A stretch of 64,000 nucleotides of DNA, taken from Bacillota bacterium (GTDB lineage Bacteria > Bacillota > JAAYKD01). The position numbers were made by a program, and so were the translations under genes. The stretch spans positions 1,568,001 to 1,632,000 of the forward strand of contig OY762825.2 of NCBI GenBank assembly GCA_963666425.2. The letters run 5' to 3'. Shown here piece after piece: positions 20,960 to 39,360 of the stretch (its first letter is position 1; each line of letters starts with the position of its first letter). Below the pieces are notes generated by a model, which saw nothing but the letters and a program-made list of their open reading frames with translations, was not told the DNA's origin and ran no database searches.

Positions 20960-21787
20960 TTATGCTAAGAGACCGAAATAAACCAAAACGGCAATACCCA
21001 GAACAATTCGATACCAACCGAAAACGGCAAAATCATTTTTCTGAATATAGCGCATCAGAAAACGAATGGCCAAGAGGGAAACCACAAAAGCCACAATCGT
21101 ACCGACCGCCAGAATCGCCCACTCGGTTTGCGTCAGGACAAAGCCAAATTTCAAAATGCGCAGGGCACTGGCACCCAGCATGACCGGAATGGCCATAAAG
21201 AAAGAAAACTCCGCCGCAATGGTGCGGGAAGCGCCCAGCAGCATACCGCCTAAAATTGTCGCTCCGGAGCGGGAGGTGCCGGGAACCAAGGCCAGGACCT
21301 GAAAGATACCCATCAAGGCGGCAGTGCCGTAGCCGAAGTGATCCATCTTGCGAATCTTTGCCTGCCGCGATTTGTTGCGCCGCTCCAAAACAATAAACAG
21401 CACACCGTAGACAATCAGCATGATCGCCACCGTCAGATAGCCGCTGAGCTTTGCTTCTACCCAATCATTAAACAAAAGTCCAATGATCCCCGCCGGAACG
21501 GAAGCCACAAAAACCTTCAGCCATAACTCGATTGTCTCTTTGCGTTCGCGCTTGGATTTACTGAGAGCAAAAGGATTCAAACGATTAAAATAAAGTACAA
21601 TGACAGCCAAAATAGAGCCCAACTGCACAACTACCAGGAACATATTCATAAAGGTCGCCGACACATTCAAATGCATCAACTCGTCCAATAAAATCATATG
21701 TCCGGTGCTACTGACCGGCAGCCATTCCGTAACGCCCTGCACAAGCCCCAAGAGCGCTGCTTTCGCAATTTCCAACCAATTCATCAT
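20960..21787 (-). CDS. uppP: Undecaprenyl-diphosphatase (BacA family)
   Basis: [21 protein letters not shown] and AAEFSF motifs. Confidence 0.95.
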
Positions 21788-21972
21788 AAACCGCCTCCCT
21801 TAATACGATTATTTTAGCACGTTACCAGGCTTTTTACCATGACTATTTCGTAATATTACGAAATTGATATCATTTTCCACTGTGTAGGAATTATTACGCC
21901 CTTTGAAGAAATGATCAAGCAATTGGCGGGAAGAGGAAGCGTCCGCAACCTGTCAAAGAAGGAAGCACCCGC

Positions 21973-22170
21973 TCAAGTACATTGGGCAGAACCAACAAAA
22001 TAGATAGGTAGACCGATCAAGCACACTGGGCAAAACCAACAAAATGTAGAAGCAAACCGATCAAACACATTGGCCGAACCAACAAAAATATAAAGCAAAC
22101 CGATCAAGCGCATTGGGCAGAACCAACAATAATATAAAGCAAGCCGATGAAGCACATTGGGCAGATGTAG
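21973..22170 (+). repeat. Degenerate 43-44 bp tandem repeat, about 4.5 copies, ending in the GTAG of a REP
   Basis: Units TCAAGCACATTGGGCAGAACCAACAAAAT...AAACCGA start at 21973, 22017, 22061, 22104 and 22148. Confidence 0.9.
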
Positions 22171-22203
22171 CCAGCTATCAAACGTCAAGTGGCAAAACGA
22201 AAA

Positions 22204-23376
22204 TTATATTCTGGGAACATAAGGCTTTTTATCCCTTAAAACAGCAAAAACAATGTTGCATAATTTATGTGTAACAGCTCCAATTGCCGTCATATAATCT
22301 TTTCCTTCGTCGCGTTTCTTCTGGTAAAAAGCAGACATGACCGGATCTTTTTGCGCGGCAACCGTTGCGGCATTCCAGAGCGCTCTGCGCAGATAAGGTG
22401 AGCCTCGCTTCGACATCGTGTTGTGCGTTGAAGTGAAATTACCGGATTGCTTAATCGAAGGGTCAATACCGGCAAATGCCGCCAGTTTCTTTGGATTTTC
22501 GAAATTATCAATATTGCCGATTTCCGAGTAGATCACCGCAGCCGAGGTGACTCCAACACCAATAATGGTATCCAGATAGCATTCACATTGGGAATAGATC
22601 TGCTCAATCTTATTCTCAATTGCGTCAATCTGTTCTTCAATGAATTGAATCAGATCCACGGTTTGGTGTAATTCAAAGCATAGAGCAGCGTTCGCTCTAT
22701 TCACACCAACAGTGTGTCTGCAGGCGCTGCGGATCTCCAGCGCTTTTTCCTCACCGAAACTGCCGCGGGAATGCTTCGCTAAAAAATCAGCCAACCGCTT
22801 TGTGCCGAGCTTCAGAATGGCATCCGGTGACGGATACTTGCTGAGCAACTCCAGCGAAGTTTTACCGAAAATATTGGAAAACAGCTTGTGATATTCCGGA
22901 AAAAGGTGATCCAGCACGCCAATTACATGGTTTTTGTGCTTTGCAATCTCATCAACCAGAGAACAGCGGAAACGGCATAACTCGCGTAAATTCTGGACAT
23001 CCTCCGTTTGTACCGCTACGTCGGAATAACGTCCCATGCGGATCACATCCGCGATATAACCGCAATCCACCGTATCCGTCTTGGTTTTACGGACAGACAT
23101 GCGCCGTATGGCGTCGGTGAGCAGGGGATTGACCACATGCAATTCAATTCCTAAATCGAGTAAAACACAATAAAAATTCAGCCAGTAATGACCGGTGGCT
23201 TCCATGCCGACGCAAATTGCATCTTGCTTTTGGTAAAGAGCGACCTTCTGCAAAAACAATTGAAAGCCCTCTTCGGAATTTTCAAATGCAAACGAGGGAG
23301 CCAGCGCTTGACCACTGGCGTCCACCGCGATCACCTGGTGACGGAATTTACCGATGTCTACGCCAAAAGTAATCAT
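22204..23376 (-). CDS. IS110 family DEDD transposase/recombinase
   Basis: GVDIGK, GMEATG and KTKTDTVD (DEDD RuvC-like); AFAGIDPSIKQSG (catalytic Ser region); SKRGSPYLRRAL. Confidence 0.95.
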   Translation of the reverse strand: MITFGVDIGKFRHQVIAVDASGQALAPSFAFENSEEGFQLFLQKVALYQKQDAICVGMEATGHYWLNFYCVLLDLGIELHVVNPLLTDAIRRMSVRKTKTDTVDCGYIADVIRMGRYSDVAVQTEDVQNLRELCRFRCSLVDEIAKHKNHVIGVLDHLFPEYHKLFSNIFGKTSLELLSKYPSPDAILKLGTKRLADFLAKHSRGSFGEEKALEIRSACRHTVGVNRANAALCFELHQTVDLIQFIEEQIDAIENKIEQIYSQCECYLDTIIGVGVTSAAVIYSEIGNIDNFENPKKLAAFAGIDPSIKQSGNFTSTHNTMSKRGSPYLRRALWNAATVAAQKDPVMSAFYQKKRDEGKDYMTAIGAVTHKLCNIVFAVLRDKKPYVPRI

Positions 23377-23426
23377 TTACAGCAACTCCTCAAACTGGAA
23401 TGCGGCAAAGGATGATCTCTCTGACG

Positions 23427-23562
23427 CTGACAGCTGCAACCTCGCGTGAAATACAAGGATTTTACCCTATCCAGCCAATACGCAGATTTCTGTCAGATCA
23501 GAGGCAACACTCTACATCACAGGAACGATTCCCAGGGAACAGTACGTTGACCTCTGCCTGAC
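23427..23562 (-). ncRNA. Putative bridge RNA core (target- and donor-binding loops), IS copy 1
   Basis: Stem-enclosed ACUGUUCCCU-hairpin-GAUGUAG matching the insertion target; second stem-loop with partial donor matches; ends approximate. Confidence 0.75.
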
Positions 23563-23668
23563 AAAATTATACCACAAAGGGCAAACCCCTTGGATACCTA
23601 AAGAGTGGCTTTGGCTCGCTTCCTGTACCCCGTAAATGAGTTACCTTGGCACTACTAGTATATACGAG

Positions 23669-23868
23669 GGAACAGTCTTGACTGTTCCGAACGCATCGCA
23701 TCAGTCAGCTTGATATGCTTATGGGTGCGCGGAATGGTCAAGACCATTCCCTACCTTGCACAATGTTTATAACAAATCTGCAATGGTATGCATATTAACG
23801 CCAAGTCACATTGGGCAGAACCAACAAAATAGATTGGCAACCCGATCAAACACATTGGGCAAATGTAG
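23669..23868. repeat. REP mosaic between the IS copies: split REP, linker, inverted REP (23729-23754), module shared with the 39-kb array, 44-bp unit, GTAG
   Basis: GGAACAGTCTTGACTGTTCCG; GCGGAATGGTCAAGACCATTCCCTAC; homology to 39049-39140 and 21973-22170. Confidence 0.85.
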
Positions 23869-23901
23869 CCAGCTATCAAACGTCAAGTGGCAAAACGAAA
23901 A

Positions 23902-25074
23902 TTATATTCTGGGAACATAAGGCTTTTTATCCCTTAAAACAGCAAAAACAATGTTGCATAATTTATGTGTAACAGCTCCAATTGCCGTCATATAATCTTT
24001 TCCTTCGTCGCGTTTCTTCTGGTAAAAAGCAGACATGACCGGATCTTTTTGCGCGGCAACCGTTGCGGCATTCCAGAGCGCTCTGCGCAGATAAGGTGAG
24101 CCTCGCTTCGACATCGTGTTGTGCGTTGAAGTGAAATTACCGGATTGCTTAATCGAAGGGTCAATACCGGCAAATGCCGCCAGTTTCTTTGGATTTTCGA
24201 AATTATCAATATTGCCGATTTCCGAGTAGATCACCGCAGCCGAGGTGACTCCAACACCAATAATGGTATCCAGATAGCATTCACATTGGGAATAGATCTG
24301 CTCAATCTTATTCTCAATTGCGTCAATCTGTTCTTCAATGAATTGAATCAGATCCACGGTTTGGTGTAATTCAAAGCATAGAGCAGCGTTCGCTCTATTC
24401 ACACCAACAGTGTGTCTGCAGGCGCTGCGGATCTCCAGCGCTTTTTCCTCACCGAAACTGCCGCGGGAATGCTTCGCTAAAAAATCAGCCAACCGCTTTG
24501 TGCCGAGCTTCAGAATGGCATCCGGTGACGGATACTTGCTGAGCAACTCCAGCGAAGTTTTACCGAAAATATTGGAAAACAGCTTGTGATATTCCGGAAA
24601 AAGGTGATCCAGCACGCCAATTACATGGTTTTTGTGCTTTGCAATCTCATCAACCAGAGAACAGCGGAAACGGCATAACTCGCGTAAATTCTGGACATCC
24701 TCCGTTTGTACCGCTACGTCGGAATAACGTCCCATGCGGATCACATCCGCGATATAACCGCAATCCACCGTATCCGTCTTGGTTTTACGGACAGACATGC
24801 GCCGTATGGCGTCGGTGAGCAGGGGATTGACCACATGCAATTCAATTCCTAAATCGAGTAAAACACAATAAAAATTCAGCCAGTAATGACCGGTGGCTTC
24901 CATGCCGACGCAAATTGCATCTTGCTTTTGGTAAAGAGCGACCTTCTGCAAAAACAATTGAAAGCCCTCTTCGGAATTTTCAAATGCAAACGAGGGAGCC
25001 AGCGCTTGACCACTGGCGTCCACCGCGATCGCCTGGTGACGGAATTTACCGATGTCTACGCCAAAAGTAATCAT
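23902..25074 (-). CDS. IS110 family DEDD transposase/recombinase
   Basis: Same as 22204-23376 except one residue. Confidence 0.95.
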   Translation of the reverse strand: MITFGVDIGKFRHQAIAVDASGQALAPSFAFENSEEGFQLFLQKVALYQKQDAICVGMEATGHYWLNFYCVLLDLGIELHVVNPLLTDAIRRMSVRKTKTDTVDCGYIADVIRMGRYSDVAVQTEDVQNLRELCRFRCSLVDEIAKHKNHVIGVLDHLFPEYHKLFSNIFGKTSLELLSKYPSPDAILKLGTKRLADFLAKHSRGSFGEEKALEIRSACRHTVGVNRANAALCFELHQTVDLIQFIEEQIDAIENKIEQIYSQCECYLDTIIGVGVTSAAVIYSEIGNIDNFENPKKLAAFAGIDPSIKQSGNFTSTHNTMSKRGSPYLRRALWNAATVAAQKDPVMSAFYQKKRDEGKDYMTAIGAVTHKLCNIVFAVLRDKKPYVPRI

Positions 25075-25124
25075 TTACAGCAACTCCTCAAACTGGAATG
25101 CGGCAAAGGATGATCTCTCTGACG

Positions 25125-25260
25125 CTGACAGCTGCAACCTCGCGTGAAATACAAGGATTTTACCCTATCCAGCCAATACGCAGATTTCTGTCAGATCAGA
25201 GGCAACACTCTACATCACAGGAACGATTCCCAGGGAACAGTACGTTGACCTCTGCCTGAC
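25125..25260 (-). ncRNA. Putative bridge RNA core, IS copy 2
   Basis: Same sequence as the copy 1 left-end region; guides at 25232-25241 and 25210-25216. Confidence 0.75.
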
Positions 25261-25366
25261 AAAATTATACCACAAAGGGCAAACCCCTTGGATACCTAAA
25301 GAGTGGCTTTGGCTCGCTTCCTGTACCCCGTAAATGAGTTACCTTGGCACTACTAGTATATACGAG

Positions 25367-25451
25367 GGAACAGTCTTGACTGTTCCGCAACGTATCGCAC
25401 AAGTAAACCTAATATGTCTATGAACACGCGGAATGGTCAAGACCATTCCGC
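25367..25451. repeat. Inverted REP doublet (REPIN-like); the first REP is split by IS copy 2
   Basis: GGAACAGTCTTGACTGTTCCGC, linker, GCGGAATGGTCAAGACCATTCCGC. Confidence 0.85.
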
Positions 25452-25456
25452 GCATC

Positions 25457-25538
25457 TATACTAGTCGTGCCAAGGTAACTCATTGACAGGGTACAAGAAA
25501 CGAGTCAGAGCAACTCTTTTTAGGTATCCAAGCGGGTT
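25457..25538 (+). mobile_element. Orphan, diverged, inverted copy of the first ~80 bp of the IS110 left end
   Basis: TATACTAGTCGTGCCAAGGTAACTCATT...TAGGTATCCAAG aligns to the reverse complement of 25282-25360 (roughly 85% by eye). Confidence 0.8.
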
Positions 25539-25548
25539 GAAGGAGCTC

Positions 25549-26322
25549 TCAATTTTGCATGCTCGATGATTCTGCTATGTAAATTTGCTCATAAACATCA
25601 AGCATAGTTTCTTTACTGCGCGTGATGTGAATGGCTGCTAAATCTATGTCTAGAGTACGCATTTTTTGAATACAGATTTGAATATCGTTATAGACTTCAA
25701 CCGGAGCAGGGATCTTATTTGCCGCATTGATAAGTGGAAACAGGCGAAATACATCCTGCCGATGCTTACGCAAATCGCGGTCGTTTACATGTGCTCCGCG
25801 AGCTTTACGATCTGTAAGATCCAGCCAAGCTTTCATTTTTAATGGAATGATATGAACTGCATCCAGCACGGAGACATCACCGGCAACTGCTCTGCCAGCC
25901 AGAAGGAACTTATAGTAGCTGTCATTCAATAAAATAGCCGAAAGGCTGGTTATCTCATCGTCAATATGCAGAGGCATGAGATGGCCGATTGCCTGAAGTT
26001 GAACCCCACTTTGAGGGCGTGAGAACAATTCTATCATTTTAGGGTAAGCAGGGTTAGTAGGATTAACAAACCTATAAAACTTTGGCTGTCCAATGCTGCT
26101 CAAGTGTGTTGTATAGTCACCATCTTCAATGAACTGCCAAATAGCTTTGCCAAAATCTGTTGTTAAGGCTTCAATGATAAGCACCATATCAATATCTTGG
26201 GTAAGCCGAAAGTCGAGGCCCGCGTCACTCATCAGCAAATCGCAGGCCATGCCTCCGATTACCGTGTATTGTTCTTTATATGCACTGAAGTGTTCCCTAA
26301 AAACCTCAATTCCATGCGCCAT
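25549..26322 (-). CDS. Putative nucleotidyltransferase (AbiEii-like toxin)
   Basis: VIGGMAC...RLTQDIDMV NTase motif; LKMKAW...KHRQDV C-terminal motif. Confidence 0.7.
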   Translation of the reverse strand: MAHGIEVFREHFSAYKEQYTVIGGMACDLLMSDAGLDFRLTQDIDMVLIIEALTTDFGKAIWQFIEDGDYTTHLSSIGQPKFYRFVNPTNPAYPKMIELFSRPQSGVQLQAIGHLMPLHIDDEITSLSAILLNDSYYKFLLAGRAVAGDVSVLDAVHIIPLKMKAWLDLTDRKARGAHVNDRDLRKHRQDVFRLFPLINAANKIPAPVEVYNDIQICIQKMRTLDIDLAAIHITRSKETMLDVYEQIYIAESSSMQN

Positions 26323-26339
26323 AAAAACAACTCCTCTCT

Positions 26340-27323
26340 TTAACCCTCAGTTGGCAGCCCATACTTTTCGCGTATTGTATCAAGACCACCTTGAATACGC
26401 TCATCAGTTACTGCTCTCAGGCTAAGCAGTAAGGAAATATCATCGACTATTTCGCCTTCGGATAAAGCTTTTGGATCGTAGTTCCATACTTCTATAATGT
26501 GACCACCAAAGTCATTGAATTTTTTTTTTGTAATGATAGAATCTGGTAAAATGGCTTTTACATCTTTTCTCGAAATGACAAGGCCGCCATCAGATGTATT
26601 AGCATTCACCATTGTCAGTTTTGATAATGCTTGAAGGCCGCCGTATTTGTATGCAGCATGATTCTGCAATGATTTTACATAGATCTCTTTATCAACGGGC
26701 GAGCTCATTCGCAGCATTGCTTTTTGCAGTATTTCATCCAGACTAAGGGCAGGAGAAAGCCATTTGTTTGTGCCTACTGTTCTTTGAGCGAAAATTCCGG
26801 AATCGGTTAAGTCATCAATGGCTCTGGTGCAGCTCGACTTTGCAATATTTAATGCTCTTACTATTTGCGTAAGGTTAATCTGCACTTGCGGGTTATTCTT
26901 ATATTGATAGTACAAATATAAAAATACAACCTGAGTCATTGGAGCCATTTTGTCAGCAACAGCAATCTCTCGTTTAAAACGATCGCTGAAGCTACAGCCC
27001 CAAAACGGAAGATATACTTGGTGCGGTATTGAAATGAATGGTGTGTTGCTCTCAAGAAGATTCTGCCGCTGCGCTGCAGAAAGGTTATCCAGATTTAGAA
27101 CACAATTTATATTACACAGTGAACCTATGATTTTGAGTTGCTTTTTTAGAGAAGAAAGCCTAAGAGAAGTGTCATAAGGTTTGACAACCAGGCATTCGTT
27201 ATTATTCCAAGTTAGTTTTTGTGCAGTATATCCATCGTTAATATAAAAGGGAACATTGGGCGGGAAGGAATAGGGTACGCTTTTTATTGTTGTACCGAAT
27301 ATGGTTTGAAGATAATCCAACAT
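26340..27323 (-). CDS. HTH-containing protein (AbiEi-like antitoxin/regulator partner)
   Basis: wHTH-like INLTQIVRALNIAKSSCTRAIDDL; QVYLPF; C-terminal VDDISLLLSL...DERI; co-transcribed with the NTase. Confidence 0.6.
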   Translation of the reverse strand: MLDYLQTIFGTTIKSVPYSFPPNVPFYINDGYTAQKLTWNNNECLVVKPYDTSLRLSSLKKQLKIIGSLCNINCVLNLDNLSAAQRQNLLESNTPFISIPHQVYLPFWGCSFSDRFKREIAVADKMAPMTQVVFLYLYYQYKNNPQVQINLTQIVRALNIAKSSCTRAIDDLTDSGIFAQRTVGTNKWLSPALSLDEILQKAMLRMSSPVDKEIYVKSLQNHAAYKYGGLQALSKLTMVNANTSDGGLVISRKDVKAILPDSIITKKKFNDFGGHIIEVWNYDPKALSEGEIVDDISLLLSLRAVTDERIQGGLDTIREKYGLPTEG

Positions 27324-38762: not shown

Positions 38763-39360
38763 ACGAGGTCACGCGGAATGGTCAAGACCATTCCCTACCT
38801 TTACACAATGTCCATGACCAATTTGCTATGGCATTTATCAAACGCTAAAACACGTTGGACGGAACGATTAAGCTCATTGGGCAATGGTATCTATCAAACA
38901 CCAAAATACATTGGTAAAACGATGAATCACATTGGGCAGATGTAGGGAACGGTCTTGACCGTTCCGCAGCATCACGCATCAATCCGCTTGATAGGTAAAC
39001 GGATACAAGGTCAGGGAACGAGCTACGGAGAGTGGAGAACGAGATTACGCGGAATGGTCAAGACCATTCCCTACCCTTACACAATGTCCATGACAAATCT
39101 GCAATGGTATTTATCAAACACCAAAATACATTGGACAAGATTACGCGGAATGGTCAAGACCATTCCTACCCTTACACAATGTTCATAACAAATCTGCAAT
39201 GGCATTTATCAAACGCCAAAATACATTGGACGAGGTTACGCGGAATGGTCAAGACCATTCCCTACCTTTACACAATGTCCATAACAAATCTGCAATGGCA
39301 GATATCAAACGCCAAAATACATTGGACGAGGTTACGGGTGCGGAGCCACGCGGAATGAGT
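38763..39360. repeat. REP mosaic (BIME-like) array including three tandem 95-96 bp units
   Basis: REPs at 38773-38798, 38942-38967 (inverted), 39049-39074, 39145-39169 and 39240-39265; near-identical linkers ACACAATGTCCATAACAAATCTGCAATGG...ATACATTGGAC. Confidence 0.9.

Follow-up and report, generated by a model that had tools for sequence, protein, structure and literature searches.

A bridge RNA-encoding IS110-group element, as judged from sequence, at one position of GTAG-type repetitive extragenic palindromes in an uncultured Bacillota lineage

The 64,000-nucleotide stretch of Bacillota bacterium DNA analyzed here (assembly GCA_963666425.2, contig OY762825.2, positions 1,568,001 to 1,632,000; hereinafter, the window) contains, at positions 22161-25388, two direct copies of a 1498-bp insertion sequence (IS) of the IS110 family, each bordered by the parts of a GTAG-type repetitive extragenic palindrome (REP). 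The coordinates of the element, its parts and the adjacent repeats are given in Table 1. The two copies differ by one base, which results in valine (copy 1) or alanine (copy 2) at residue 14 of the transposase. The long non-coding left end (LE) upstream of the gene together with the short right end (RE) is the layout of the IS110 group rather than of the IS1111 group, where the long non-coding region is downstream. The repeat listing of the window includes no terminal inverted repeats of at least 14 nt between the element ends. The core dinucleotide, AG on the forward strand and CT in the element orientation, is present at both junctions of copy 1 (22169-22170 and 23667-23668). The initial annotation of this locus, made from the sequence alone, had placed ATGTAG on the left, a hairpin on the right and AG at both junctions of both copies; these boundaries are exact to the base, and the agreement is far beyond chance.

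Table 1. Features of the IS110-group element, its REP targets and the RAYT-like gene (window coordinates unless a genome or locus prefix is given)
Feature	Coordinates	Strand	Remarks
Left flank ATGTAG of copy 1	22165-22170	+	Right target CTACAT in element orientation
IS copy 1	22171-23668	-	1498 bp including one core dinucleotide; begins CCAGCTATCAAACG, ends ACTAGTATATACGAG
Right end (RE)	22171-22203	-	33 nt; terminus GATAGCTGG
Candidate -35 box TTGACG within RE	22183-22188	-	Putative junction promoter
Transposase/recombinase gene, copy 1	22204-23376	-	390 aa
Left end (LE)	23377-23668	-	292-nt non-coding leader; holds the putative bridge RNA
Right donor guide GCGAG	23441-23445	-	CGAG complements CTCG (core and first two LE bases)
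Left donor guide UGGCUGG	23471-23477	-	Followed by AU; matches RE terminus TAGCTGG, with G where RE has A
Right target guide GAUGUAG	23512-23518	-	7-nt complement of CTACATC in the right target
Small hairpin GGAA-UCG-UUCC	23522-23532	-	11 bases, within the target-binding loop
Left target guide ACUGUUCCCU	23534-23543	-	10 nt; equals left target and core of the window's two sites
Extended -10-like box TGTGGTATAAT	23566-23576	-	Just upstream of the first bridge-RNA stem; putative function
REP hairpin right of copy 1	23669-23688	+	GGAACAGTCTTGACTGTTCC; 9-bp stem, 2-nt loop; split from GTAG by copy 1
Inverted partner REP	23731-23754	-	GGAAT type, then CTAC; doublet with the hairpin at 23669
IS copy 2	23869-25366	-	Transposase at 23902-25074
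REP hairpin right of copy 2	25367-25386	+	Same hairpin as after copy 1
Uninterrupted GTAG-REP (empty target)	38942-38965	+	GTAGGGAACGGTCTTGACCGTTCC; inverted partner at 39051-39074
RAYT-like 179-aa ORF	G000:C1:532982-533518 (L083:1450-1989)	-	Between REP doublets

The assignment to the IS110 family, also made in the initial annotation, is confirmed by all three domain models, namely Pfam DEDD_Tnp_IS110 (PF01548; 138.9 bits, cut-off 29), Transposase_20 (PF02371; 90.7 bits, cut-off 21.3) and the NCBIfam family NF033542, 'IS110 family RNA-guided transposase' (263.2 bits, cut-off 140). Among solved structures, phmmer matches only the transposases of ISCro4 (E 2.5e-21) and IS621 (E 6.2e-21). Identity with IS621 can be rejected because the match to PDB 8wt6 (78 bits) is a partial alignment in two stretches, indicative of an analogue, not a copy. 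The residues D7, E59, D101, D104 and S311(-G312), which belong to the motifs GVD, MEATG, KTDTVD and QSG, align with the catalytic residues of IS621; the counterparts there are D11, E60, D102, D105 and S241-G242, with the roles assigned in the available part of the published account (PMC11208158). Of the 120 listed proteins, none is named after a particular IS; the names given are 'transposase' and 'IS110 family transposase'.

The genome to which the window belongs (3.2 Mb in 18 contigs) encodes 10 full-length copies that are 98.9-100% identical over all 1498 bases (0-16 differences), each with an intact transposase open reading frame (ORF), and one additional 82-nt fragment. All 10 copies have CT, the core proposed originally, at both junctions, with the 2-nt core in place of a target duplication, and all are bordered by GTAG on one side and by GGAAC[G/A]GTCTTGAC[C/T]GTTCC on the other, whereas the sequence further out varies. 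In the element orientation, the target reads GAC(C/T)GTTCC-CT-ACAT. With all copies collected and their flanks aligned, none is found outside a REP, neither among the 10 in this genome nor at the single site in a congener.

Allowing up to 3 mismatches to the 20-nt hairpin and counting one orientation, we find 195 instances in the genome, of which 175 are directly preceded by GTAG, 10 by CGAG (those occupied by the IS) and 10 by other sequences. The hairpins form approximately 20 clusters, often in alternating orientation and with spacings of 75-160 bp. By a crude, ORF-based test, the centers of 13 of the 195 lie inside ORFs of at least 200 aa, compared to the 77.7% of the genome that is covered by such ORFs. 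The prediction that the target is a GTAG-REP agrees with these counts, and it is from the extragenic location that a role of the REPs as a 'safe harbour' for the element might be surmised. The exact REP pattern is found 163 times in this genome (G000) and 61 times in the congener (G001), and the search of 29 further relatives (4 from the family, 4 from the order and 21 from the phylum of this genome) found none; in the pattern search of these genomes, the REP family is thus lineage-restricted.

These repeats resemble the REP systems that are linked to REP-associated tyrosine transposases (RAYT), or REPIN systems. Under the prediction rule given in the available text of PMC6006769, a REP has GTAG or GTGG, a gap of 0-2 nt and then a stem of 7-20 nt that is fully paired and closed by a loop of 2-5 nt; here, GTAG immediately precedes a 9-bp stem with a 2-nt loop, in agreement with the rule. 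High copy number and clustering in alternating orientation are further features in common with REP/RAYT systems, and the Y1-transposase gene between REPs described below may be another. Unlike the present family, those described are 'mostly in Proteobacteria', as stated in the same source (PMC6006769). Our literature search for RAYT or REPIN in Firmicutes found no relevant report, which is not proof that none is in print, and the available portions of PMC3733652 and PMC6006769 are without any mention of 'Firmicutes'. Three Y1-transposase matches were detected in the genome, one of which is a 179-aa ORF with REP doublets on both sides. This RAYT-like protein matches Pfam Y1_Tnp with 29.9 bits (cut-off 23), and in NCBIfam it comes closest to 'REP-associated tyrosine transposase' (E 4e-19), at 68.8 bits, which is below the cut-off of 80. 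Its translation contains an HVH motif (PNHVHAIV) and an SFYDHVIR motif, which we take to be the HUH and tyrosine motifs, respectively. A run of GAACGAG/GAACGGG heptamers is located directly upstream of the RAYT-like ORF (L083:2000-2140), and an ORF containing an AbiEii domain adjoins it.

The hairpin borders every copy of the IS and could, on these grounds, be conceived as a part of the element, that is, a REP-like IS end, in which case the REPs would be solo remnants rather than targets. However, the core is the exact point at which identity between copies ends, sequence variation (G/A, C/T) is seen in the hairpin and not in the IS ends, 175 of the hairpins bear GTAG rather than IS sequence, the gene for the RAYT-like protein, the usual mobilizer of REPs, is flanked by REPs, and the orthologous empty site described below is an intact REP. 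Taken together, these features make the remnant explanation exceedingly improbable, and we treat the REP as the target.

The initial annotation also predicted that removal of the IS rebuilds a REP like the uninterrupted one at 38942, the context of which (CACATTGGGCAGATGTAG before, CGCAGCATCACGCATCA after) resembles the flanks of the IS copies. An empty allele with exactly the predicted boundaries is present in the congener. The gene to the left of the IS, a 275-aa ORF (20960-21787) that is presumably uppP, has an ortholog in G001 with 85% DNA identity, and downstream of this ortholog there is an intact REP doublet in which CACATTGGGCAATTGTAG directly continues into GGAACAGTCTTGACTGTTCCGCAACGCATCGCATAAGTCAGCTTGATATGCTTAT; this doublet aligns with the IS-removed window sequence across the junction. 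The congener carries one IS copy, 97% identical, which resides in another REP, again between GTAG and GGAAC.

The distribution of the copies within the genome bears on the way they spread. Eight of the 10 copies comprise four direct-orientation pairs, with members 1.7-2.3 kb apart, as might be expected if segmental duplication, or homologous recombination between REP clusters, were the chief mode of spread instead of repeated site-specific insertion. In one pair, at C1 1537836/1540107, the IS copies are identical and the right flanks differ at only 1 of 60 positions; this pair could be a duplication. In contrast, the right flanks are strongly diverged in three of the four pairs (41-46 mismatches in 60 ungapped positions), and two pairs combine IS variants of different lineages that are 14-15 bases apart; these are separate insertions into neighboring repeat units. 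In the window pair, the flanks differ far more than the IS itself, at 17 and 46 of 60 ungapped positions. Furthermore, the copies are spread over six separate regions, one of them on another contig, and the congener copy is at a different REP, with the orthologous site empty. Spread mainly by duplication therefore appears very unlikely, and repeated insertion at REPs is the preferred explanation. A search of a plasmid collection with the element yielded no match.

The 292-nt leader is predicted to adopt a bridge-RNA fold in which one internal loop binds the target and the other the donor. In an alignment of 49 leaders (48 from relatives and that of the window), the scaffold is conserved whereas the guide segments are variable. 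A hand-drawn fold with 28 pairs in 5 helices has 89.1% of the alignment cells paired, compared to 40-52% with slid partners; compensatory changes are observed at 24 of the 28 pairs, and the covariation score was reached by none of 500 shuffles. The single-sequence fold of the leader (z = -2.4) is uninformative alone, and its minimum free energy structure differs from the covariation-supported one. An Rfam scan of positions 21000-27000 gave no match to a bridge-RNA family; a match to a plant microRNA model at 26344-26422 was dismissed as a chance hit (26.8 bits, cut-off 97). Relatives have a (G/T)ATAAT box at the place that corresponds to the -10-like box of Table 1. In the promoter scan, this internal -10 box went unreported and the leader had no predicted minus-strand promoter; the statements on promoters made here are therefore read from the sequence only.

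All 10 copies possess the left and right target guides and the left and right donor guides. The G in the left donor guide opposite the A-containing RE terminus would correspond to a possible rG-dT wobble. The right target guide matches 7 nt at one site and 6 nt at six sites. At its third position, the left target guide has U in nine copies and C in one, and the respective position of the sites is C in eight and T in two. The deviating copy (G000:C1:706183-707680) has ACCGUUCCCU in place of ACUGUUCCCU, a perfect match to the majority REP variant; the left target guide is thus polymorphic within one genome. The REPs of the GGAAC type are occupied in 10 of 131 cases compared to none of 51 for the GGAAT type (hypergeometric p ~0.03, by hand calculation). 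The motif GTAGGGAAC[AG]G is found unoccupied 121 times, of which 117 are in perfect hairpins, so that the guide alone would confine the element to REPs. There is no significant enrichment of the perfectly matching REP variant among the insertions (2 of 10, versus 12 of ~131 sites), and visual inspection for handshake guides found no pairing with the donor for the two bases that follow the right target guide.

The guide logic extends to relatives of the element, for which we collected 80 loci from species genomes and 80 from metagenomes, with proteins 41-64% identical to the present transposase. In 61 of the 131 distinct loci, the CT-terminated 9-mer at the position of the left target guide is found again at least 60 nt upstream, at the left junction, with no more than one mismatch, compared to 16.7 expected from shuffles. 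In 122 of 145 loci, the hexamer of the left donor guide is identical to a hexamer that precedes CT downstream of the gene, and the two covary by variant (AGCTGG 86/103, AGTTGG 16/16, AGCCGG 13/14), with all five loci that have a GGCTGG guide, including this element, ending in AGCTGG. The right donor guide complements the first four LE bases in 47 of 53 loci. Three relatives, L084 (64% amino acid identity), L085 (61%) and L128 (47%), are inserted at other perfect hairpins followed by CT-AC, and their left guides, CCGUCCCCU, GUCGCCCCU (with one mismatch) and AUCGCCCCU, respectively, match their own stems. Furthermore, L011 and L012 (47%) are inserted at CT-AC after an imperfect hairpin, and L034 at CT-AC without a hairpin. 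L001 (64%), the closest of the named relatives, has the same donor ends and scaffold.

Several other features of these relatives were observed. The most common left guides, in 27 of the 61 mapped loci, end in ACCTCCT or TCCTCCT (flanks 18 and 9, respectively) and have no target hairpin; these sequences are the complement of the Shine-Dalgarno-like AGGAGG(T), which suggests that a large IS110 clade might insert at ribosome-binding-site-like sequences. Approximately 100 bp past the right end of the IS of L085, positions 1817-1987 of this locus encode a segment with 52% identity to residues 115-176 of the present RAYT-like protein (tblastn E 4e-16), and this IS is located in a GTAG...CTAC palindrome beside a RAYT-like gene or gene fragment.

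It has to be considered whether the protein recognizes the REP hairpin itself, with recognition directed by structure or protein and the likeness of the leader to the target being incidental or auxiliary. Every target is a hairpin, older work assumed protein-directed recognition of REPs (PMC1525189, available text), and according to the accessible part of a 2026 preprint, ISPpu10 requires, besides base pairing, a hairpin located 5' of the target. Nevertheless, this explanation is unlikely, given that a 10-nt identity and a 7-nt complement are present in the two strands of one internal loop, that the left guides of relatives change with their targets, that 58 of the 61 mapped junctions of relatives lack a perfect hairpin in the presence of the same RNA scaffold, and that GGAAT-type REPs are unoccupied despite having the same hairpin.

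We conclude, with a probability of roughly 0.88, that this is an active or recently active IS110-group element with RNA-guided insertion at one position of the host GTAG-REPs. By analogy with IS621, the element would be excised as a circle in which RE is joined to LE at the CT core, and the RE-LE junction may form a promoter (TTGACG in RE, a 16-nt spacer and TATATA in LE). Base pairing with the target would then involve the bottom strand of C(C/T)GTTCC-CT for the left target guide and the top strand of CT-AC(AT) for the right one, the donor loop would pair with the RE-LE junction, and a recombinase tetramer would exchange the strands beside CT, such that the insertion would part GTAG from its hairpin. 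The 13-nt target motif is nearly confined to REPs, and hence the insertions fall between genes.

Several points count against RNA-guided insertion or limit its support. Eight of the 10 copies are in ACCGTTCC targets and nine have the guide ACUGUUCC, so that the commonest pairing needs a U-G wobble; the match of the right guide is only 4 nt (CTAC) at three of the 10 sites. RNAalifold alone gave 8 pairs only, and the remaining pairs of the fold were thus drawn by eye from the alignment and then tested. No guide-flank match was found by a simple scan in 70 of the 131 relatives, the chance level of 16.7 is not small, and the left guide of L001 mismatches its only flank at 3 positions. A contribution of the DNA hairpin to recognition, as for ISPpu10, is inseparable here from base pairing. 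Finally, the assembled contigs of public runs, the only form of these data, include neither a circle junction nor a same-strain empty site, and no RNA, circle or transposition event was observed.

Among these contigs, a single one from X1 and a single one from X3 connect 21967 with 23837, separated by 58 other letters, as well as 23753 with 25426 (side 24), a weak hint of a one-unit form of the locus given the likeness of 90 and the short sides. Contigs of the RNA library X13 (24880-25146 and 25178-25397) were rejected as evidence of expression, being a small share and not shown to be RNA.

The REPs are surrounded by additional repeats. Tandem units of ~44 bp (containing CATTGGGCAGAACCAACAAAATAGAT) precede the REP doublets at 21941-22158 and 23814-23868, and the same kind of unit is found before the empty REP at 38942 and at the orthologous G001 site; judging by this arrangement, the REPs appear to belong to larger composite repeat units. 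A regular array of ~20 REPs at G000:C1:578114-579897, with alternating GGAACAG and GGAAT types and spacings of 90-94, in some cases 146 bp, contains most of the perfectly guide-matching ACTGTTCC targets of the genome, none of which is occupied. To the right of copy 2, the inverted partner REP (25430-25449) lacks its CTAC and is adjoined, at 25451-25539, by a fragment of ~85-105 nt that is 87-88% similar to the first ~100 nt of the IS LE, in the opposite orientation. This is the sole such fragment in the genome (82-nt match, 86.6%), and it looks like a stump of an older or diverged insertion into a GGAAT-type REP. The ORF to the right of the IS/REP block (257 aa; 25549-26322, minus strand) matches no model of Pfam or NCBIfam at the thresholds applied.

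Targeting of REPs by IS110 elements is established for IS621, ISPa11, ISPpu9, ISPpu10 and ISRm19, all of which are proteobacterial according to the available text of PMC1525189 and PMC11208160. The natural target of IS621 is a REP end, ATCAGGCCTAC (PMC11208160, accessible part), which likewise ends in CT-AC, so that the comparison with IS621 in the initial annotation was apt. The two elements share the domain pair, the aligned D-E-D-D and serine residues, the CT core and an LE non-coding RNA with target and donor loops, in which the left target plus the core is repeated in the left target guide and CT-AC is complementary to the right target guide; after the left donor guide, IS621 has an A-U linker (PMC11208158, available text) and the present element has AU. 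Unlike IS621, the present element encodes a distant protein (phmmer E 6e-21) of 390 aa, compared to the 328-residue PDB chain, is found in a different phylum and at a different REP sequence, has a longer leader, with ~100 nt before the first guide stem, and has a left donor guide that appears not to cover the core. With ISPpu10, which the available part of the 2026 preprint describes as needing the target hairpin, tolerating a G-U wobble in the left target and preferring paired REPs, the element appears to share the hairpin 5' of the core, the G-U wobble, the paired (convergent) REP targets and the IS-cargo-IS arrangements. ISPpu9, ISPpu10, ISPa11 and ISRm19 differ in being proteobacterial, and they are likened here by description, not by sequence relatedness. 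The element is an analogue, not a close relative, of the known REP-targeting IS110 elements. No name for it was found in the sources searched, and the target lists published with PMC11208160 could already include the element or its clade. The Firmicutes host proposed originally is in line with the names 'Bacillota bacterium' and 'Negativicutes bacterium' of proteins at least 90% identical to the PyrG (CTP synthase) and ArgS encoded in the window; the host class is probably Negativicutes.

Five different target stems are represented among this genome, L084, L085, L128 and L011/L012. A tentative interpretation, which we regard as possible but doubtful, is that a sub-lineage of Bacillota IS110 elements is a specialist parasite of RAYT/REP systems, with a right guide fixed on the complement of GTAG and a left guide retuned to the stem of each host. 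If so, the polymorphic guide (U in nine copies, C in one) together with the wobble would cover two REP variants, the separation of GTAG from the hairpin may disable the REP for RAYT, and the IS and the REP population would evolve against each other.

The present findings do not reveal a new mechanism. Rather, they add an uncultured Bacillota lineage with its own GTAG-REP/RAYT-like system to the Proteobacteria as hosts of bridge-RNA-guided IS110 elements that target REPs. For the annotation of this genome, the element accounts for the tandem IS pairs and the broken palindromes. Moreover, the ten copies and ~120 free targets in one genome, along with the empty orthologous allele in the congener, the guide polymorphism and the relatives retuned to other palindromes, constitute a natural data set on guides that track a repeat family.

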